Shown here piece after piece: positions 1-8,291 of a stretch of 8,291 nucleotides of DNA. Origin of the DNA: an archaeon (GTDB taxonomy: Archaea > Iainarchaeota > Iainarchaeia > Iainarchaeales > CSSED10-239); the NCBI GenBank assembly GCA_037147375.1, contig JBAWVI010000041.1:1-8291 (forward strand). The letters are read 5' to 3'. How positions within the stretch are numbered: the first letter of the stretch is position 1; each line of letters opens with the position of its first letter. Under the pieces are notes generated by a model. It saw only the letters and a list, made by a program, of their open reading frames with translations, was not told the origin of the DNA and did not search any database. The translations under genes were made by a program, and so were the position numbers.

Positions 1-214
1 CTTCCTTTGGCTTATGTCCTTTCTCAATCTTTGCTAAAACATCTTTAAAATTATCTGATATTATCTTATTTCTTGATCTTGAGAGCTTTTCAAGAATTAT
101 TTTTAAATCATTACTTTTAGGAATGGATGAGAGTTTTAAGATTTCATCAATAAGTGCATTCTCTAATTTCTTTTTCTCAAGAGAAAAATAATATTTTTTT
201 AATAAATCTAACAT
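1..214 (-). CDS. T2SSF-domain (TadB/TadC, EpdJ/EpdK-like) platform protein, N-terminal part only; the gene runs off the left edge
   Basis: This ORF is absent from the supplied track because it is open to the window edge. Hand translation of the minus strand from the ATG at 214-212 stays open to base 1: MLDLLKKYYFSLEKKKLENALIDEILKLSSIPKSNDLKIILEKLSRSRNKIISDNFKDVLAKIEKGHKPKE. The frame is closed upstream by TAA at 262-260. A GGAG lies about 13 nt upstream of the ATG. The gene follows the preceding T2SSF gene after a 22-nt gap. The helical segment ending in the I-x-K-G-x-x-x-x-E pattern resembles the cytoplasmic bundle of T2SSF proteins. The family call is by eye only. Confidence 0.5.
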   Translation of the reverse strand, partial: MLDLLKKYYFSLEKKKLENALIDEILKLSSIPKSNDLKIILEKLSRSRNKIISDNFKDVLAKIEKGHKPKE

Positions 215-236
215 ATTTTCTTTCTTGCTCCAAAGA

Positions 237-980
237 TTATAAAGGATTATTTGATCTAATTACAAGCAACAACAACATATCAATTAATGGAAATAATACA
301 ATTGTAACAAAAACAATTGTGATTGGAGAGAAACTTAATTCTAGAAAATTACTTCCAACAAGTAAGAACATTAAAAACATTGATGGAATAATTGCTGAAA
401 AAACAATAAACAATAAGGTCAGAAGATTAAGCTTTGTTGAAAACCTTCTAACCATTTGTGTTTGATTTTCAAAGATTGTGTCTGATAAGGTCTTAAGTGA
501 ATATTCTTTATTTTTAACTCCTGAGTCCATAATATCTTCAATCTGATAGAAAACTCTCTCAAGCTCAGGATAGCTTGAGGACACAGAAAATAAAGCATCT
601 TGGAGATTAAAACCATGATTCTTAACAGAATATAAAGCTTCTTTAATTAACTTACCAATCTCTGTTTGATCACACCTTGATTCAAGTGCAATCTTTAATG
701 GTATGTTCTTTGAAAGATCTGTTGCAAGATTATTTAAGAAGAATGGAAGCTCTTGCTGTATCTTCTTTCTTTTTGTTTCAAGCACAATCTTTTTATTGAA
801 AAAGGTTATTGAAAAGAAAATAATAAATGAGAGAATGAAAATGTAAACTAGATTATCAAAAGATAAATCAAATAGATTATAATCAATTAAAAGATAAAGA
901 AGAAGCAAAGATAGAAAAAGAATTCCATAAAGAACTAGATTCTTTCTTGAAAAAGTTGTTTCAATTGTTTTTGAAAGCAT
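237..980 (-). CDS. Single-domain T2SSF family membrane platform protein (TadB/TadC or EpdJ/EpdK-like)
   Basis: ORF track, 247 aa. There are two N-terminal hydrophobic helices (LVLYGILFLSLLLLYLLI and LVYIFILSFIIFFSITFF). A soluble helical segment of about 120 aa follows (QELPFFLNNLATDLSKNIPLKIALES...LIKEALYSVKNHGFNLQDAL). Two C-terminal hydrophobic helices close the protein (LNLLTLLFIVFSAIIPSMFLMFLLV and ITIVFVTIVLFPLIDMLLLLVI). This is the topology of one T2SSF domain. The ATG at 980-978 directly abuts the TAA (983-981) of the ATPase gene, and AGGAG lies about 10 nt upstream inside the ATPase 3' end. Confidence 0.8.
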   Translation of the reverse strand: MLSKTIETTFSRKNLVLYGILFLSLLLLYLLIDYNLFDLSFDNLVYIFILSFIIFFSITFFNKKIVLETKRKKIQQELPFFLNNLATDLSKNIPLKIALESRCDQTEIGKLIKEALYSVKNHGFNLQDALFSVSSSYPELERVFYQIEDIMDSGVKNKEYSLKTLSDTIFENQTQMVRRFSTKLNLLTLLFIVFSAIIPSMFLMFLLVGSNFLELSFSPITIVFVTIVLFPLIDMLLLLVIRSNNPL

Positions 981-2855
981 TTATGGTTTACTCCTCTCGT
1001 TTAGAGATTCTGTAAAATAAGAAAGAACATCTGTTGGGGAGGGGGAGAGGTTTTTTCTAGTTTGGATGTCCAAGAAATATAACAACTTTTTATTTTGCTT
1101 TTTAAATAATTTATTTAATTCTGCATTTGTCTTGATTCCAAAAGCCATCCTAAACTTATCAAACAGCTTTTTTGGAGTTCCAACTCTTACAAGCTTTTCT
1201 TTATTTATATCAAACTCAAACAATTTGTTTAAGGTTGGTTTATTATTTTCAAAAACCACTTCACAAATTTCAGTAATATTTCTAAGATCAGATACTTTAC
1301 CTTTATTGTACTTATTATATCTTCTTTGAACAATAATTAAATCAATAACAGACAAATCATTTTCAATAACACCATAAGAAACTAATCTTAGAAGAGCTTC
1401 CTTTGCGTTTTGAGAATGAAAAGTGGTATATGTTCCTTTTGCTTGACCACAAAGCATAGAATCAATTATTGCTCTTGCTTCTTCTCTTGATCTAACTTCT
1501 CCAATAACCACTCTATCAGGTCTCATTCTAAGTGTATTAATTACAAGAGAATCAAGAGTAATTCCAAGATCTGAGTTTACAAGAGTAAATATCTTATGCT
1601 CGTGTGGAATATTTATTTCTCTAACTTCTTCAACCACAACAAACCTTTCATCAAATGGAACAAAAGATAAAAGTGTGTTAAGTGTAGTTGTTTTACCAGA
1701 ACCAGTGTTACCTACAACAAAAACATTTGAATCAGTTAAGAAAGCAAGAGATAAAAAAGAAAGAGCATAAATTGATAACGTGTTTCTTTTAATTAAATCC
1801 ACAATTGTAAATGGCTTTTCAGAAAACTTCCTAATTGTAACACACACGCTTTCTGTAATTGGAGAAATAATTGCATTCATTCTTGAAGCACCAATTGTAG
1901 CATCAAGAAGTGGATTTTTCAAAGTTATATATTTATTTGTTTCCCAGGATAGTTTATTAATTAAATCTTTAATTATCTTTGAAGATGTGTAAATTAGATT
2001 TGTTTCAAGCCATCCATAAGTTCTATGATACACAAAAACTGGTTTGTTTTCTCCAATTATTGAAATTTCTTCTAAACTATCATCTGCAAGCAATTTAGAG
2101 AGAGGCCCATAATCATAAAGATTGCTGTATGCAAGTAAAAGAATATAATTAAACTGATCAGACTCAAGTTCAATTTTTTCTCTATAACAATAATTAACTA
2201 AGGTTTCTTCAAGTTCTTCTTTTACAATTTCAGGAAGCTTATCTAGTTTACTTATTTTATCTTGCTTTTCTTTATCATCCTTAATATCAAATCTTTCTCT
2301 ATATTCATCTATAACTAAATTAATTATTTCAATTTCGTCTATTGAAAGAATAGATTCATCAATAAAATAATGCTTCTTTCCAAAATCATCTATGCATACG
2401 TTCTTTGATATGTTTCTTTTATTAAATTCAATTATTTTATATCCAAGATATTTATTAATAATTTCTAATTCTTCGTTTTTGCTTGTGTCTGTAACTAGTT
2501 CTAAGATATCAGGATTATTCTTTAAACAATACATGTTAAATGATTGATAAGAGCATAAATCACATTTTTGTGCCTTACTTTTCTTTAAAATAAGTGCATT
2601 ATTAGGGCAAGCTTCAATACATGCCTTGCATCCATTACATCTTGCTTGATCAATTGATACAACTCCTTTTGCAGAAAAATAGATTGCATTAGTTTTACAA
2701 GAATTTAAGCAAGGCGGATCTTCACAATTTTTACAATTAAAAATAATTATTGAATCTCTAGTTTTAAATTCATATGGACAATTAAGAAAAAGGTTTTTGT
2801 TTTTTCTCTTAGATAGTAGCTTAGATGTTTCTTCATTTTTAAATTTAATATACAT
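981..2855 (-). CDS. Type II/IV secretion / type IV filament assembly ATPase (FlaI/PilB/CpaF-VirB11 superfamily) with an N-terminal 4Fe-4S ferredoxin-like domain
   Basis: ORF track, 624 aa. ATPase core motifs are present:
- Walker A: VVGNTGSGKTTTLNTL (encoded around 1691-1717).
- Asp box: ERFVVVEEVREINIP.
- Walker B: LRMRPDRVVIGEVRSREEA.
- His box: KGTYTTFHSQ.
Upstream are blocks typical of the FlaI/GspE N-terminal domain (LEEISIIGENKPVFVYHRTYGWLETN, DATIGASRMNAI, VTIRKFSEKPFTIVDLI). The N-terminal region of about 110 aa is Cys-rich (see the separate feature). GTGAT lies 8 nt upstream of the ATG at 2855-2853. Confidence 0.9.
   Translation of the reverse strand: MYIKFKNEETSKLLSKRKNKNLFLNCPYEFKTRDSIIIFNCKNCEDPPCLNSCKTNAIYFSAKGVVSIDQARCNGCKACIEACPNNALILKKSKAQKCDLCSYQSFNMYCLKNNPDILELVTDTSKNEELEIINKYLGYKIIEFNKRNISKNVCIDDFGKKHYFIDESILSIDEIEIINLVIDEYRERFDIKDDKEKQDKISKLDKLPEIVKEELEETLVNYCYREKIELESDQFNYILLLAYSNLYDYGPLSKLLADDSLEEISIIGENKPVFVYHRTYGWLETNLIYTSSKIIKDLINKLSWETNKYITLKNPLLDATIGASRMNAIISPITESVCVTIRKFSEKPFTIVDLIKRNTLSIYALSFLSLAFLTDSNVFVVGNTGSGKTTTLNTLLSFVPFDERFVVVEEVREINIPHEHKIFTLVNSDLGITLDSLVINTLRMRPDRVVIGEVRSREEARAIIDSMLCGQAKGTYTTFHSQNAKEALLRLVSYGVIENDLSVIDLIIVQRRYNKYNKGKVSDLRNITEICEVVFENNKPTLNKLFEFDINKEKLVRVGTPKKLFDKFRMAFGIKTNAELNKLFKKQNKKLLYFLDIQTRKNLSPSPTDVLSYFTESLNERSKP
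2526..2780 (-). other. Cys-rich polyferredoxin-like module (residues ~26-110 of the ATPase ORF)
   Basis: Twelve Cys occur in about 85 aa. The groups are CKNCEDPPCLNSC followed by KTNAIYF (C-x2-C-x4-C-x3-C), CNGCKACIEACP (C-x2-C-x2-C-x3-C-P, the canonical 4Fe-4S motif), and KCDLC...YC. The spacing and flanking residues match DmsB/NrfC/PsrB-type 4Fe-4S dicluster domains as I remember them. Confidence 0.7.
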
Positions 2856-2856
2856 C

Positions 2857-2879
2857 TAGATATATCACAAATATATCTA
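2857..2879 (-). promoter_or_regulatory. Perfect 9-bp inverted repeat (TAGATATAT-cacaa-ATATATCTA) ending 1 nt before the ATPase start codon and overlapping its GTGAT ribosome-binding motif
   Basis: I checked the pairing base by base: 2857-2865 pairs with 2871-2879, with a 5-nt loop at 2866-2870. The SD-like GTGAT (minus strand, plus coordinates 2864-2868) spans the loop-stem junction. The stem has 8 A-T pairs and 1 G-C pair, so it is weak and partly expected in AT-rich DNA. It could equally be part of a TATA-like box for a leaderless transcript. Confidence 0.3.
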
Positions 2880-2959
2880 TAACTAATATTCTTAATATTC
2901 ATATTCATATAATTAAGAAATAATTAAACTAAAAGTAAAATCAAACTCAAAGCAAAAGC

Positions 2960-3754
2960 TTATGGGTTATTAATATCAAACACGTTTGCCATAGCATTGT
3001 AACTTGATTTAAACTTTTGATATAATTCTGAAAAGTTAGTTAACATAGTTGTGTTAAGTCTACCTTCAATCCCATTCATTGAATCGGATATACTTACATT
3101 AATATCATTTATCTTAGAATTAACAGACCCAAATTGAGTGTTTACGTTACTAAATTCATTCATAATATTATTATCAATATAATTTTGTACACCATATACT
3201 CTAGCATCAACTGAATTTATTCTTTCAGTTAAATTACTATCAAGGTCATTTAATCTTTGAACAAGTGCAACATATTGCTCTCTTTGTGATCTTGAAACCT
3301 CTACAATTAAATTAAGTCCTGTTGAAACGTGGAATGAAGAAGATACTTGTAATAATCTTGGAGTTCCATTTCTAATTACTGTACATCTAATATATTCTTC
3401 ATATATTCCTTCATTCTCTGGAGTAATAAATGAAACATAATAGTTTCCTGGAACAGTTGTTGAAATCATTTCTCTATCCACAAAGAAAAAAGATTTATCA
3501 GGATATAATAAAGACACAATACAATTTGCATCAGTTATTGATATTCCTTTTGAATCTTGCAGTCTAACAATTATCTGACCTTGCTCATTACTTATGTATT
3601 CAGTTCCTGATACCATCTTAAGATCTGATGCAACTCCTCTTCCTTTAAAGTAAAAGAAAAGGAACGTGCCTATAGCAAGAAGAAGGATTATACCTATTAC
3701 AAAGTATATTCTTTTATCACTTAGATTTTCTCGCATGTGGGATCTAAACATCAT
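2960..3754 (-). CDS. N-terminally membrane-anchored surface protein, short paralogue of the 643-aa repeat protein (2-Cys beta-rich domain plus about one degenerate repeat unit)
   Basis: ORF track, 264 aa. A basic stretch (SDKR) precedes a hydrophobic helix, IYFVIGIILLLAIGTFLFFYF. Residues ~47-143 align by eye with residues ~46-145 of the 643-aa protein. Shared blocks are TEY, IVRL-D--G, C-V--L-PDKS-F, GN-Y, G-YE, C, NGT and SSFH. The C-terminal part (INDINVSISDSMNGIEGRLNTTMLTNFSELY) resembles the 55-aa repeat of the larger gene. About five N-X-S/T sequons lie after the anchor. Confidence 0.75.
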   Translation of the reverse strand: MMFRSHMRENLSDKRIYFVIGIILLLAIGTFLFFYFKGRGVASDLKMVSGTEYISNEQGQIIVRLQDSKGISITDANCIVSLLYPDKSFFFVDREMISTTVPGNYYVSFITPENEGIYEEYIRCTVIRNGTPRLLQVSSSFHVSTGLNLIVEVSRSQREQYVALVQRLNDLDSNLTERINSVDARVYGVQNYIDNNIMNEFSNVNTQFGSVNSKINDINVSISDSMNGIEGRLNTTMLTNFSELYQKFKSSYNAMANVFDINNP

Positions 3755-3790
3755 TAGTTCAACTCAGGATATATTATATAGTTAATATAT

Positions 3791-3835
3791 AAAAACAAAA
3801 AGTATAAAAAACCAAGGGATTTGATGTTTATCCCT
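3791..3835 (-). terminator. Hairpin plus T-tract downstream of the 643-aa gene (candidate transcription terminator)
   Basis: The minus-strand RNA reads AGGGAU-AAACAUCAA-AUCCCU (plus-strand stems at 3830-3835 and 3815-3820, 9-nt loop). It is followed immediately by UGGUUUUUUAUACUUUUUGUUUUU (plus 3791-3814). The hairpin starts 25 nt after the TAA at 3863-3861. Oligo-T tracts are the known archaeal termination signal. The hairpin is short, with a 6-bp stem. Confidence 0.4.
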
Positions 3836-3860
3836 AAAGTTTCTTATAAAATCAATTTAC

Positions 3861-5792
3861 TTATGATATTATTCTAACATCAATCTGACTCTGTTGATTA
3901 TCTAAAATCTCATGAGCTGTTGAATTGATGTCTGTTGTTTGTGATTTTATGATACCAATGTCTGTTAATAATGTATCAATTCTTGATGATATACTTCCTG
4001 AAAGATATTCCCAGGTTGTTGTTGTAGTATTATCTATCTCATCAAGTCTTGCTACTTGTTCATTATGCATTACTACAGCTGCTGCTTTGATATTATATAT
4101 TTCTTGACACAATGCACTTGAATCTGTTTGTGGATTTGAACAAAATTGTTCAAGTAAAGCAATGTTTCCATCAATATTTGCAAATCTTTGGTCTATTGCT
4201 ACTCTATCTGTGTCATTCATAGCATGTACTGTAAGCCATGTAGTATCATCCTTAACACTTTGTACTTGTGTTGATAATTGTTCAAGCATTACGTTTAATT
4301 GAGCATTTAAGTCTCCAGCAACAAGGCTTGTAATCATATTAGATAAAGATGAATTAACATCTGATAAATCTGATTTGATTTCTTGTCCTGTAGTTACTAC
4401 TTGTCCATTAACGCTAACTTCTAAACTATCAAGTCTTGCACTTAAGAAATTATTTGAATCTAAGAACTTTTGTGCAATTAAAGCATTTGTGTTATTAAAT
4501 TGGTTTGTGATTTGACTTGACAAACTTACGTTTAATGCATCTAAGATATCTGTTAAGTTTGTATTAACGTTTGTTAAGTTTGTGTTTATCTCGTCACCAG
4601 TATCTTGAACCTTTGCATTTAAACTTAAATTTACGTTTTCTAATTGAGCAGAAAGTTCAGCAAATTTAGTTGTCATTTGTGTTGAAAGGTTTGTGTTTAC
4701 TGTGTTTAAAAGGTTTGTTAAAGATGTATCAACGTTTGTTAAGTGTGCGTTAATAGCGTCACCAGTAGCAACCATTCTTCCATCTATACTTAAGTTAATA
4801 TCTTCTAAGTTATTTCCAAGAGCTAAAAACTCAGAGCCCATTTGGTTTGAAAGGTTTGTGTTTACTGTGTTTAAGATATTTGTCATTGATGTATTAACAT
4901 CACTTAAGTTTGTAGTAATGATTTGTCCTGTTTCTGCAACCTTTGCCATGATTGTTAAATTAACATCACTTAATTGTGCAGTTTCTGCATTAAATGAACT
5001 TAACATCTGACCTGAAAGGTTAGTATTTACTGTATTTAATAAACTTGTTAATGATGTGTTTGATGTACTAATACTTGTTTGTAATTCTTGTCCTGTAGTT
5101 ACTACAGTTCCAGTAATACTTACATTAACATCATTTAATTGTGTCCCAAGTGTATTAATTCCTTCAGCTAATTGGCTTGTAACACCTGTATTAACATCTG
5201 TTACTAAATTATTTAAGTTTGTATTCATGTTTGCTATGTTTGTTGTTAATGTTTGATTTGTGTCTGCAATCTTTGCACTTAAAGAAACATTTACTTGTCC
5301 AAGGTTTGCATCAAGTGCATCTACCTTTTCAGTAACTATCTTAACTTGCTCTAAAGCTGGATTTAAGTGGAATGATTGAGATGTTTTAACTGTTTGTGTT
5401 CCGTTTACACAAGTTACTTCTTGTTCGTATGTTCCAAGTGGAGCACCAACAAGTGAATCTGTTCTATACCAGTTTCCTGCAATATTTGATAAAGCCATTG
5501 GCTGGTTATTAACAAATGTACTTTTATCAGGTCTTAAGATTGTAACATTACAAGATTCAACTTGATATGGTTCACCTTGATAATCAGCAAGTCTTACTAT
5601 TGTTGAGGCTACATCATCTCTCCAATATTCAGTGTGAGAAACCCAACTGACTACTGGTTCATTAACTGTTTGTTTACCATCAGTGTATGCAAATGCAAAA
5701 AATGCAATTACAACAATTATAATGGTTGAAACAATACCCCATTTAATAAGCTTCTTTTTTTTGTTTGTATATTTTGGATTTAAATCTTCCAT
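3861..5792 (-). CDS. Large N-terminally anchored surface protein: 2-Cys beta-rich domain, six 55-aa Asn/Thr/Ser/Leu/Val-rich tandem repeats, non-repetitive C-terminal domain
   Basis: ORF track, 643 aa.
- A KKKKLIK stretch precedes the hydrophobic helix WGIVSTIIIVVIAFFAFAY (positive-inside, so the C-terminus is predicted outside).
- GGTGA (plus 5800-5804) lies 7 nt upstream of the ATG at 5792-5790.
- The membrane-proximal domain is at aa ~46-145 and carries C81 and C128.
- The repeat block is at aa 164-508.
- The C-terminal domain is at aa ~509-643 and carries C551 and C562.
I counted about 22 N-X-S/T sequons by hand. Confidence 0.85.
   Translation of the reverse strand: MEDLNPKYTNKKKKLIKWGIVSTIIIVVIAFFAFAYTDGKQTVNEPVVSWVSHTEYWRDDVASTIVRLADYQGEPYQVESCNVTILRPDKSTFVNNQPMALSNIAGNWYRTDSLVGAPLGTYEQEVTCVNGTQTVKTSQSFHLNPALEQVKIVTEKVDALDANLGQVNVSLSAKIADTNQTLTTNIANMNTNLNNLVTDVNTGVTSQLAEGINTLGTQLNDVNVSITGTVVTTGQELQTSISTSNTSLTSLLNTVNTNLSGQMLSSFNAETAQLSDVNLTIMAKVAETGQIITTNLSDVNTSMTNILNTVNTNLSNQMGSEFLALGNNLEDINLSIDGRMVATGDAINAHLTNVDTSLTNLLNTVNTNLSTQMTTKFAELSAQLENVNLSLNAKVQDTGDEINTNLTNVNTNLTDILDALNVSLSSQITNQFNNTNALIAQKFLDSNNFLSARLDSLEVSVNGQVVTTGQEIKSDLSDVNSSLSNMITSLVAGDLNAQLNVMLEQLSTQVQSVKDDTTWLTVHAMNDTDRVAIDQRFANIDGNIALLEQFCSNPQTDSSALCQEIYNIKAAAVVMHNEQVARLDEIDNTTTTTWEYLSGSISSRIDTLLTDIGIIKSQTTDINSTAHEILDNQQSQIDVRIIS
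4269..5303 (-). repeat. In-frame tandem repeat array, period 165 nt (55 aa), six units; the central units are the best conserved
   Basis: The 26-mer GAAAGGTTTGTGTTTACTGTGTTTAA occurs at 4684-4709 and again at 4849-4874, exactly 165 nt apart. A degenerate copy, GAAAGGTTAGTATTTACTGTATTTAA, lies at 5014-5039, a further 165 nt on. The protein units start at L164, L219, L274, L329, L384 and, after a 15-aa insertion, L454. The unit consensus is roughly L-x-[DN]-V-N-[VL]-S-[IL]-x-[AG]-x-V-x-[DT]-T-G-x-x-I-x-T-N-L-[ST]-x-V-N-T-[SN]-[LM]-T-x-[IL]-L-N-T-V-N-T-N-L-S-x-Q-M. Confidence 0.9.
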
Positions 5793-6069: not shown

Positions 6070-6690
6070 TCATTTATTTAAAACAAGTATAAACTTTCTT
6101 TTTTTAATTGATTTTTCATTATAAATAAATTTGTTAACGTAAAAATTACATCTTTCAAATGCAGATGTAACAATTTCAAAAGTTTTTTCATCTTTTGGAT
6201 AAAATTGAATAACACAAACACCATTTTCTGAAAGAAGACTAAACACATTCTTCCCAATCTTCTTAATAATGTTTTTAATTTCCATCTCTTCTTTATTAGA
6301 GATCACCCATTGAAGAGCTGACACAGAAATAATTAAATTAAAATTATTCTTTTCTAAAGACAATTTATTTAAATCAAGAAACCCACCTACAAAAACATCT
6401 AAATTTTTCTTTTTTGCAATATTTATCATTTCGTGTGCAACATCAATTCCAACTAAACTTTCATATCCAAGAGATTTAAGATAAGTTAGAGAAAACCCAG
6501 TACCACATCCAATATCAAGTATCTTATCTTCTTTATTTGGCTCAGTATCTAAAAGAGCAAGGAGAATAGATGTTAATTCTTCTTGAGTTTTTCTCATCCC
6601 ACTTGATTGATCATATCTTTCTGCTTCTTCTCTTGTATAAAAAGAATTTGGATCTTCGTGTTCTTCTTCAGGAGTAATTTTTTTATTCAT
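6070..6690 (-). CDS. Class I SAM-dependent methyltransferase, Bud23/WBSCR22-like (candidate small-subunit rRNA guanine-N7 methyltransferase)
   Basis: ORF track, 206 aa, TGA stop at 6072-6070. SAM motif I is ILDIGCGTGFS. Other blocks match my recollection of conserved Bud23/WBSCR22 segments:
- N-terminal P-x-x-FY-x-x-EEAERY.
- SVSALQWV.
- VIQFYPKDEKTFEIVTSAFERCNF.
- C-terminal KKRKFILVLNK.
The basic C-terminal extension found in eukaryotic Bud23 is absent. Confidence 0.8.
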   Translation of the reverse strand: MNKKITPEEEHEDPNSFYTREEAERYDQSSGMRKTQEELTSILLALLDTEPNKEDKILDIGCGTGFSLTYLKSLGYESLVGIDVAHEMINIAKKKNLDVFVGGFLDLNKLSLEKNNFNLIISVSALQWVISNKEEMEIKNIIKKIGKNVFSLLSENGVCVIQFYPKDEKTFEIVTSAFERCNFYVNKFIYNEKSIKKRKFILVLNK

Positions 6691-6818: not shown

Positions 6819-7520
6819 ATGATATCTCAAAACGTTGTTGAACTAAAAGATGTGTATAAAACATATAAGATGGGAGATAATGAAGTACATGCTCTTGATG
6901 GAGTTACTCTCACAATTAAGAAAGGTGAGTTTGTTTCTATTATGGGAGCATCTGGTTCTGGTAAATCCACAATGATGCATATTATAGGTGCTCTTGATCT
7001 TCCAACTAGAGGAGAAGTTTTAATTAATAATAAAAGACTTTCAACTCAAACAGAAGATGAGCTTGCACACATTAGAGGAAAATCAATTGGCTTTGTTTTC
7101 CAAGAGTTTAACTTAATTCCAACTCTTACAGCTCTTGAAAACGTAAATCTTCCTGTTCTTTTCCAAGAAGATGGAGATGATGATCACATTAATAGATGTA
7201 AAGCATTACTTGGTCTTGTAGGATTACATGAAAGAATAGATCACAAACCAAATGAATTATCTGGTGGGCAACAACAAAGAGTTGCAATTGCAAGAGCTCT
7301 TGCAAACAATCCAGAAATTATTTTAGCTGATGAACCAACAGGTGCTCTTGATTCAAAATCAAGTCTTGAAATTATTCAACTTCTTGAAAAATTAAATAAA
7401 GATGGACACACAATTATAATTATTACTCATGATCCAGGAGTAGCAAAACATGCAAGAAGAAATGTATTTTTAAAAGATGGAAAAATAATTACAGATTCCG
7501 CAAATAAAGCAAAAATCTAA
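6819..7520 (+). CDS. ABC transporter ATP-binding protein, MacB/LolD/FtsE-like subfamily
   Basis: ORF track, 233 aa. Motifs present:
- Walker A: GASGSGKST.
- Q-loop: FVFQEFNL.
- ABC signature: LSGGQQQRVAIARAL.
- Walker B: IILADEPTGALD.
- H-loop: IIITHD.
A gene for an FtsX/MacB-type permease follows 12 nt downstream. Confidence 0.95.
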   Translation: MISQNVVELKDVYKTYKMGDNEVHALDGVTLTIKKGEFVSIMGASGSGKSTMMHIIGALDLPTRGEVLINNKRLSTQTEDELAHIRGKSIGFVFQEFNLIPTLTALENVNLPVLFQEDGDDDHINRCKALLGLVGLHERIDHKPNELSGGQQQRVAIARALANNPEIILADEPTGALDSKSSLEIIQLLEKLNKDGHTIIIITHDPGVAKHARRNVFLKDGKIITDSANKAKI

Positions 7521-7532
7521 ACTGAAATAAAT

Positions 7533-8291
7533 ATGAAACAATTACCTTTGTTTGTTATAAATAATCTAAGACGTAGAAAACTTAGAAGTTGGTTAACCAT
7601 TATAGGTATAATTGTTGGGGTTCTTGCAATAGTTTCATTAATGTCTTTATCTCAAGGTTTAAAAGATTCAATTACAAGTGAGTTTGATAAACTTGGTGCA
7701 CAAAAAATAACTATTGATTCTAAATTAAATGCACTTGGTGCTGAAACAAATAAAGGTTTAACAACAGATGATATTAGAGAAATTAAGAAAATAAGCGATA
7801 TACAAGACGTTGTTGGAAAAATAAACTCTGGATTAATAATTAAATATAATGGAGAAAGTAAATTTTTAACAGTTACTGGATATGATATTACTCAAATGAC
7901 AGAAATATTCAAGCAAGACAATGTTGAATTACTTAAAGGACGCCTTCCTGAATCTCAAAAAGCAAAAGAAATAATCATGGGTTATGATTTTTATGTAATT
8001 GATGTAACTAGCAATAATACTCCAAACCCTATGGGTTTTGAAAGTAGTGCATTTAAGAAAAAAATAGATATAGGATCTGAAGTTGAAATAGATAATGAAA
8101 AATACAAAGTTGTTGGTATCCTAAAGGACACAGGAAATACTCAAACAAATAGAAATTGTTATATGCCTATTGAAACTCTAAGAAAAATAACTGGAGCTAG
8201 CGAAACTAGTGTTGATTCTATTTATGCAATTGCTAAAGATGGAAAAGATGTTGAGGTTGTTGGAGAAACAATAAAAGATAAACTTATAAGA
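7533..8291 (+). CDS. ABC transporter permease, FtsX/MacB type (N-terminal TM helix plus extracytoplasmic MacB_PCD-like domain); 3' end lies outside the window
   Basis: This ORF is absent from the track because it has no stop inside the window. Hand translation from the ATG at 7533 stays open for 253 codons to 8291: MKQLPLFVINNLRRRKLRSWLTIIGIIVGVLAIVSLMSLSQGLKDSITSEFDKLGAQKITIDS...KYKVVGILKDTGNTQTNRNCYMPIETLRKITG... The N-terminal motif (L-R-R-R-K-L-R-S-x-L-T followed by a TM helix) and the large soluble domain after it are typical of MacB/FtsX permeases. Confidence 0.85.
   Translation, partial: MKQLPLFVINNLRRRKLRSWLTIIGIIVGVLAIVSLMSLSQGLKDSITSEFDKLGAQKITIDSKLNALGAETNKGLTTDDIREIKKISDIQDVVGKINSGLIIKYNGESKFLTVTGYDITQMTEIFKQDNVELLKGRLPESQKAKEIIMGYDFYVIDVTSNNTPNPMGFESSAFKKKIDIGSEVEIDNEKYKVVGILKDTGNTQTNRNCYMPIETLRKITGASETSVDSIYAIAKDGKDVEVVGETIKDKLIR

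Follow-up and report, generated by a model that had tools for sequence, protein, structure and literature searches.

A ferredoxin-fused type IV filament motor beside paralogous 2-Cys surface proteins in an Iainarchaeota contig: probably two separate gene modules

Do a filament motor and the large surface proteins encoded next to it belong to one machine? The question is raised by an 8,291-nucleotide stretch of DNA from an archaeon of the Iainarchaeota (lineage CSSED10-239; contig JBAWVI010000041.1 of assembly GCA_037147375.1), which in its full length is called the window here. Its left part encodes a type IV filament (TFF) ATPase with an N-terminal ferredoxin-like (Fer4) domain and two platform proteins, preceded by two anchored proteins of 264 and 643 amino acids (aa), the 2-Cys proteins. 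A sequence-only reading of the window had taken these five genes for an Epd/Tad-like motor linked to two surface proteins and had offered two explanations for the missing pilins, namely that pilin and peptidase genes lie beyond the left edge or that the motor works with the large anchored proteins instead. Comparison with related contigs (the L-numbered loci) leads us to a different answer, to which we assign a probability of about 0.6: the motor and the 2-Cys pair are two separate, functionally independent modules that became neighbours through lineage-specific rearrangement. The proposed partnership is unsupported because relatives show two gene units that are adjacent only in a narrow lineage.

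Gene order around the motor and the 2-Cys pair

The gene layout first described was reproduced by open reading frame (ORF) calls. Between 5792 and 1, the minus strand carries five genes in a row, the ATPase stop codon (TAA, 983-981) stands directly against the start codon of platform 1 (ATG, 980-978), platform 2 follows after 22 nt and 104 nt separate the end of the 264-aa gene from the ATPase start; the spacing from the 643-aa to the 264-aa gene is 106 nt (Table 1).

To follow the pair through other genomes, metagenomic contigs were scanned with the 2-Cys family alignment, yielding 70 loci in which ORFs were called and annotated with hidden Markov models (HMMs) built from the window genes. 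With few exceptions the 2-Cys genes stand in tandem (21 loci with two genes, six with three and a single locus with one). Among the 41 loci informative for linkage, each extending 3 kb or more beyond the pair on its downstream side, the Fer4 motor adjoins the pair in seven and is absent in 34, and all seven motor-adjacent loci encode a small 2-Cys protein at least 81% identical to that of the window. Contig Ga0074198_1000002 (about 977 kb) encodes a small 2-Cys protein of 83% identity. In relatives with 56-67% identity of this protein, the methyltransferase gene is followed by the large and then the small paralogue, and these by the tRNA synthetase gene; a second methyltransferase-like gene sometimes precedes the tRNA synthetase, and no ATPase adjoins the pair. 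On contig NPID01000316.1, from a 59% relative, pair and motor are both present, tens of kilobases apart. Relatives with a small 2-Cys protein of 47-100% identity (L087-L104 and L109) have the methyltransferase gene upstream of the pair in the same orientation, an association better conserved than that of pair and motor; a functional link between methyltransferase and pair, for instance modification of the pair, is possible. Two further candidates for a link between the pair and an ATPase (L103 and L145) were rejected, as their T2SSE genes lack the Fer4 domain and an adjacent split platform and are separated from the pair by unrelated genes.

Seen from the motor, a different set of genes stays together. 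The order ATPase, platform 1, platform 2 and VTT/DedA gene is kept, with short gaps, at loci whose ATPases are 99, 95, 84, 61, 57, 53 and 52% identical to that of the window, and in all Fer4-motor loci of 52-99% ATPase identity the gene directly behind platform 2 is the one for the VTT/DedA protein (196-200 aa, VTT_dom 9.8e-24). What lies upstream of this block is the 2-Cys pair in the clade of the window and a divergently transcribed phosphoribosyl pyrophosphate synthetase gene in the 61-52% loci, while the downstream gene encodes variously an aminoacyl-tRNA synthetase (aaRS), a 515-aa protein, MscS, elongation factor 2 or a DUF5018 protein. At L163, whose ATPase is 38% identical, the three core motor genes are kept and VTT is absent. 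No 2-Cys genes were found within 10 kb of the five Fer4-ATPase loci of 38-61% identity; a 308-aa gene between methyltransferase and aaRS in L160 had been considered and is not a 2-Cys homologue. DedA/VTT is therefore the conserved partner of the motor, and the units that survive rearrangement are the four-gene motor block on the one hand and the 2-Cys pair, often with its upstream methyltransferase, on the other.

These comparisons bear directly on the suggestion that, at least within this lineage, the 2-Cys proteins stand in for pilins and are assembled, exported or anchored by the motor, perhaps to attach cells to one another. In its favour, seven of seven loci of the clade of at least 81% identity show these genes side by side in one direction, separated by 104 and 106 nt, and pilins are not encoded locally. 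Against it stand the absence of the linkage from 34 of the 41 informative loci and from five of five distant Fer4-motor loci, and the fact that the conserved partner of the motor is DedA/VTT. The synteny expected between 2-Cys homologues and Fer4-fused ATPases across metagenomic loci is thus confined to the narrow clade, and the idea of a motor working with large anchored proteins is not borne out by gene order.

Table 1. Features of the window and VTT/DedA genes of related loci.
Feature	Location	Strand	Basis or remark
Platform gene 2 (N-terminal 71 of about 225 aa; cut by left edge)	1..214	-	ATG at 214-212, single T2SSF domain
Platform gene 1 (247 aa, membrane protein)	237..980	-	Single T2SSF domain
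Secretion/type IV filament ATPase (624 aa)	981..2855	-	T2SSE 3.2e-32 (Pfam)
Fer4 (multi-[4Fe-4S]) domain of ATPase, aa 26-110	2526..2780	-	Fer4_11 1.4e-09, Fer4 6.7e-07, 12 conserved cysteines
Small 2-Cys protein (264 aa)	2960..3754	-	AlphaFold2 model, Foldseek, family alignment
Large 2-Cys protein (643 aa)	3861..5792	-	Paralogy with 264-aa protein, 55-aa periodicity, AlphaFold2
S-adenosylmethionine-dependent methyltransferase (206 aa)	6070..6690	-	Methyltransf_25 1.5e-12; outside the coordinates of the finding
MacB-type ABC exporter	6819-8291	+	233-aa ATPase and MacB_PCD/FtsX permease, cut by right edge
VTT/DedA gene	L087 14236-14826		VTT match
VTT/DedA gene	L159 13262-13864		VTT match
VTT/DedA gene	L160 13420-13950		VTT match
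VTT/DedA gene	L161 14552-15154		VTT match
VTT/DedA gene	L162 10882-11478		VTT match

The window is AT-rich (GC about 0.21-0.34), and no Rfam families or tRNAs were found in it. Its source is a low-GC DPANN archaeon, and the nearest relatives that bear a name are Candidatus Iainarchaeum. At the right end of the window the MacB-type exporter continues in L087 (1723-6936) with proteins of 232 and 421 aa, the latter with a faint CARDB match, and a second MacB-type permease. The presence of this exporter also corrects the earlier description of the 264- and 643-aa proteins as the only exported proteins of the region.

The ferredoxin-fused motor and its substrates

The ATPase has the intact Walker A, Walker B, Asp and His boxes of TFF-machine ATPases. 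In an alignment of 31 homologues reaching down to 35% identity, G385, S386, K388 and T389 of Walker A as well as R443-D447, E453 and H480 are invariant. Its N-terminus carries the conserved CxxCxxCxxxC(P) motifs of a multi-cluster ferredoxin domain, with a Fer4_11 match at aa 40-102 that scores 38.5 bits against a cut-off of 26.2 (Pfam). Across the same 31 homologues, C26, C53, C73, C76, C79, C98, C101 and C110 are invariant and C41, C44, C49 and C83 are at least 90% conserved; together, these twelve cysteines would leave room for up to three [4Fe-4S] clusters.

The closest NCBIfam model is FlaI (1.7e-52; 178.9 bits against a cut-off of 550), followed by TadA-family (1.4e-38) and VirB11 models, and among PDB sequences the Archaeoglobus afGspE (2OAP, 1.8e-53) ranks before FlaI (4.5e-33) and CpaF (1.1e-28). 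Both rankings place afGspE and FlaI above CpaF, which speaks neither for nor against membership in archaeal TFF system 1. An exact look-up of the window ATPase gave no match, and the matches listed from a contig scan with the ATPase alignment, which picks up generic Walker-type patterns, were at most 39% identical and mostly bacterial CpaF, and so of no use for judging synteny. By source names, all named Fer4-ATPases come from Iainarchaeum or Diapherotrites; the homologues of the ATPase and of the 2-Cys proteins bear only generic names or are called hypothetical.

For the platform genes the support comes from their orthologues. Taken alone, platform 1 matches T2SSF weakly (E=0.0044, below gathering) and NCBIfam ArlJ at 1.8e-06 (27 bits against a cut-off of 550), and its profile finds the cytoplasmic domain of GspF in PDB with E=0.011; eight of ten orthologues match T2SSF, the best at 2e-09. 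The full-length orthologue of platform 2 (L087:13541-14218, 225 aa) matches T2SSF with E=4.6e-04, again below gathering, and nine of ten orthologues do so, the best at 4.1e-09. The two platform families are paralogous to each other (hhalign 94.8%, E=5e-08). Because orthologues match T2SSF and the platform families are paralogous, the description as an ATPase plus two split platform genes is correct, and with it the assignment to the Epd/Tad layout, in which two genes for polytopic, single-domain T2SSF proteins come straight after the ATPase gene. The motor is best read, from its sequences and gene order, as the core of a type IV filament machine in the Epd/Tad style, with no pilins encoded nearby.

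Among known systems, the nearest in layout is the Epd pilus of Methanococcus maripaludis, a member of system 1, in which the ATPase gene (EpdL) is likewise followed by two single-T2SSF genes (EpdJ and EpdK); system 1 also occurs in DPANN archaea (2026 survey). The Epd cluster counts 11 genes, among them several pilin genes and one for a dedicated peptidase, EpdA, whereas no pilin or peptidase was recognised within 10 kb of the motor of the window, whose ATPase moreover has an N-terminal Fer4 domain and whose conserved fourth gene is DedA/VTT. The bacterial Tad/Flp core (CpaF/TadA, TadB and TadC) shares the three-gene layout, and CpaF is a clear relative, but the locus has no equivalents of the Flp pilin, TadV, RcpA or TadZ, and its ATPase is of the archaeal type, fused to Fer4 and nearer to afGspE and FlaI than to CpaF. 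The archaellum motor ArlI/ArlJ provides the best NCBIfam matches of both ATPase and platform 1; ArlJ, however, is one long protein where the platform of the window consists of two halves, the FlaI and ArlJ scores remain far under the equivalog cut-offs, and the flanks contain no archaellum genes (no ArlH, ArlB, ArlF, ArlG or ArlCDE/X nearby). An iron-sulphur protein (AapX) is also part of an archaeal type IV pilus machine in the Aap pilus of the Sulfolobales, but there it is encoded by a separate gene (arCOG07320) rather than fused to the ATPase, and the Aap locus has a single platform protein and includes pilins. The Fer4 fusion and the DedA partner of a filament motor without local pilins appear to be undescribed. 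Literature searches for the Fer4 fusion, UCP018868 and PF27713 gave nothing, a 2016 census does not mention ferredoxin, and a 2026 survey of 29,521 archaeal TFF loci reported no evidence of ATPase fusions and, by text search, does not mention ferredoxin, DedA or VTT.

Where, then, would the substrates of such a motor be encoded? A FlaFind-like scan that took in all ORFs and alternative starts gave no class III signal peptide in any ORF of the window, in agreement with the original impression that no canonical pilin is in view, and no credible candidate in L087 (±10 kb), L091, L097 or L159-L162. As a positive control, the same scan recovered three class III proteins in the L163 locus, with the N-termini MQMSKG/MIGIEF..., MAMRG/QFYV... 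and, in a 1449-aa Laminin_G_3 protein, MLKG/AVAL.... No Peptidase_A24-type Pfam match occurred among the called genes of L001, L004, L087 and L159-L163.

The stretch past the left edge could be read directly, as the exact 264-aa protein is also encoded on the 21.4-kb NCBI contig CAYUKR010000008.1 (L087), which matches the window over 8290 bases at 99.07% identity. There, the rest of platform 2 is followed by genes for VTT/DedA, a class-I aaRS and a MarR-like regulator, and then for a copper chaperone of the HMA type, a membrane protein of 225 aa and a cupredoxin. L004 (ATPase 95% identical) and L001 (84%) continue in the same way with platform 2, VTT and class-I aaRS; beyond the aaRS the genes vary by contig, with a copper-homeostasis cluster in both L087 and L001. 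That platform 2 is cut by the window shows that the locus extends leftward, as the first of the two earlier explanations assumed, but the continuation in L087, L004 and L001 contains no Peptidase_A24, and the sole class III-like N-terminus, a weak one, belongs to the 225-aa membrane protein of the copper cluster (L087 18812-19489, about 5 kb off, EKRA/ILITF...), which has no Pfam match. Canonical pilins and a prepilin peptidase immediately past the left edge are therefore highly improbable. The copper-homeostasis cluster itself (MarR-like regulator, HMA chaperone and cupredoxin) lies at L087 17947-20226, about 4-6.5 kb to the left of the window, and in L001 it includes a CopA-type P-ATPase. 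The N-terminus of its 225-aa protein, MSKHNFEIEKRA/ILITFLTFIV..., follows a class III-like pattern, and the protein is conserved in L091 and L097.

In L163 (1-8841 and 10001-13207), a canonical TFF locus comprises an ATPase, two T2SSF genes and class III proteins of 142, 406 and 1449 aa, the last of them the Laminin_G_3 protein, and the Fer4 motor follows about 1 kb further downstream. The two motor cores might share substrates there.

The lack of local pilins would also fit a motor that needs none. In such a reading, the cassette of Fer4-ATPase, split platform and DedA would be a membrane translocase that works without pilins, acting for example on cargo that is lipid-linked or a protein, with DedA as a functional component. 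A four-gene block without a pilin-like gene in five independent contexts (52-99% identity), the confident recognition of DedA/VTT (9.8e-24) and the silence of the 2026 survey on ferredoxin, DedA, VTT and ATPase fusions are all compatible with it. The same survey found, however, that archaeal pilins are often encoded apart from the core genes, and the L163 cassette (38%), which has no VTT, has as its neighbour, at a distance of 1 kb, a canonical TFF locus that encodes three class III proteins. Also against a translocase, the characterised T2SSE and T2SSF pairs, every one of them to our knowledge, act on class III substrates. We consider the translocase unlikely.

The 2-Cys proteins

The 264- and 643-aa proteins are paralogous, as first proposed (blastp E=1e-20, aa 31-262 against aa 32-278). 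In an AlphaFold2 (AF2) model of the 264-aa protein (predicted local distance difference test, pLDDT, 83), a predicted transmembrane helix (aa 11-37) is followed by an immunoglobulin (Ig)/filamin-like seven-strand beta-sandwich with two cysteines invariant in the alignment (aa 43-144) and by a single long helix of about 115 residues (aa 146-260). The beta-sandwich gave only generic Foldseek matches to filamin, titin, macroglobulin and the S-layer protein SbsC (E about 1e-4). The 643-aa protein starts with a membrane anchor and the same beta-sandwich (aa 47-143), continues with six 55-aa units (aa about 163-480; window 4353-5306, minus strand), each modelled with modest confidence as a beta-hairpin and a helix (pLDDT 69.7), and ends in a helical region with a second conserved cysteine pair, C551 and C562. 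The 55-aa periodicity exists at the protein level only, as Tandem Repeats Finder detected no DNA-level array in the gene. For the repeat stalk, Foldseek returned nothing meaningful and no PDB match, with a whole-chain template modelling (TM) score of about 0.13. Orthologues of the large protein fall into length classes of about 400, 510, 640, 740, 810 and 864 aa, which suggests variation in repeat copy number, and N-x-S/T sequons are mildly enriched in the 643-aa protein (22 compared with 15.5±3.0 in shuffled sequences). The 264-aa protein belongs to no Pfam or NCBIfam family; Pfam matches of the stalks to Baculo_PEP_C and Apolipoprotein are below gathering and reflect helical repeat composition, and a PDB profile search with the 2-Cys family gave coiled-coil noise only.

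In L001 (7063-8994), and also in L091, the orthologue of the 643-aa protein is split into ORFs of 165 and 455 aa with the break inside the first repeat, and the small paralogue of L001 is 19 aa shorter at its C-terminus. The split in L001 may reflect a pseudogene, a phase variant or an assembly error.

Could these proteins themselves take the place of pilins? In type IV pilins, the N-terminal helix is the conserved part of the protein. When 86 homologues of the 264-aa protein are compared, their anchors differ in both length and sequence and show no conserved K/R-G/A site, and conservation starts right after the anchor with the invariant MVSGTEYISGExGQ...R and the two invariant cysteines; the inspected orthologues of the large paralogue likewise have a variable anchor and are conserved from WVSHTEYW onwards. 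The FlaFind-like scan was negative for both N-termini, as had been expected from their poor fit to class III cleavage, and neither protein has the conserved class III signal peptide of pilins and archaellins. Because the anchor varies and the ectodomain is conserved, the reverse of pilins, the 2-Cys proteins are to be read as signal-anchored surface proteins and not pilins, and, judged from its sequences, the pair is not a pilin substitute.

Other features speak for a motor that deploys the pair. With a beta-sandwich of the Ig type behind an N-terminal hydrophobic helix, the proteins bear a loose likeness to archaeal pilins and to ArlF/ArlG, and many archaeal TFF subsystems include Ig-fold accessory proteins (2026 survey). 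The 2-Cys proteins resemble ArlF/ArlG and the Ig-fold or S-layer-like TFF accessory proteins in forming a paralogous pair with an N-terminal hydrophobic helix and a subsequent beta-sandwich. Unlike them, they have long helical or repeat stalks, share no detected sequence similarity with ArlF/ArlG and Ig-fold accessory proteins, and are in most genomes not syntenic with TFF genes. The family is also large, with 1011 clusters at 50% identity for E<=1e-3 and 498 for E<=1e-10, and reaches Woesearchaeota, Aenigmarchaeota and Nanoarchaeia (by source names). A family so much more widespread than the Fer4 ATPase (again by source names), with a variable anchor and no conserved class III cleavage site, makes a motor that deploys the 2-Cys proteins instead of pilins quite unlikely, even when the likeness to accessory proteins is added to the tight gene order within the clade.

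Two probable modules and their possible roles

The reading that we prefer assigns the two gene units to separate functions. The first would be a motor in which a Fer4-fused, hexameric-type ATPase docks on a heterodimer of platform 1 and platform 2, with DedA/VTT as the fourth of four genes that travel together, and in which ATP hydrolysis moves class III, pilin-like substrates whose genes lie in another part of the genome; core-only TFF loci with dispersed pilins do occur in archaea (2026 survey). The iron-sulphur domain may couple motor activity to the redox or oxygen state, for which the Aap iron-sulphur protein is a loose precedent. The second would be a tandem of paralogous type II membrane proteins, each with an anchor that stays uncleaved, an Ig-like domain able to form a disulfide and a sequon-rich, long helical or repeat stalk, inserted by the general secretion route independently of the motor and most likely forming a heteromeric, glycosylated and disulfide-stabilised surface stalk or envelope component. 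Their present adjacency would have arisen when the four-gene motor block moved in between the 2-Cys pair and the tRNA synthetase gene.

Several points weigh against this separation. That the pilin substrates are encoded elsewhere is an assumption, as the window and L087 gave neither a credible pilin nor a prepilin peptidase. The adjacency of motor and pair is stable within the clade at 81-100% identity with all genes in the same direction, and therefore co-transcription or lineage-specific co-option is conceivable. Loss of synteny at larger distances is no proof against an interaction in trans. Finally, scans of bacterial type were uninformative about transcript boundaries in this archaeon: a sigma-70 scan, a bacterial model applied to an archaeal host, gave 31 promoter-like sites where 37.5 were expected, and a bacterial-type intrinsic terminator scan gave two terminator-like sites where 1.4 were expected, both inside genes. 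AT-rich TATA-like elements lie about 25-30 nt upstream of every ATPase start and are indistinguishable from background at 28% GC.

Between the two 2-Cys genes (3755-3860, minus strand), a short hairpin (GGGAT...ATCCC) and T-runs are followed by a TATA-like stretch; the bacterial-type terminator scan made no call in this gap, and at 28% GC such elements may mean little.

A combination of the alternatives, in which the cassette would be a new pilin-independent, redox-gated machine of the Iainarchaeota type within the DPANN that has been co-opted here to deploy the 2-Cys pair, for example in host-cell contact, strikes us as very unlikely. The sequence-only reading had stated that the adjacency would be coincidental if homologues of the two proteins showed no conserved linkage to type IV filament genes and if canonical pilin and prepilin peptidase genes stood immediately outside the window. 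The first of these is what the comparison found (linkage in seven of 41 loci), and the second is not, since L087 has no such genes there.

If the motor and the 2-Cys pair are indeed separate modules, the position of a motor beside large surface proteins is an accident of gene order and provides no basis for a new attachment apparatus. Each module would then be of interest in its own right. The TFF variant with Fer4-ATPase and DedA may provide an entry point to the redox control of a filament motor among the DPANN archaea, which are thought to depend on cell-cell contact, and the 2-Cys proteins represent a large, uncharacterised family of several DPANN phyla (by source names) that is a candidate for an envelope or contact structure.

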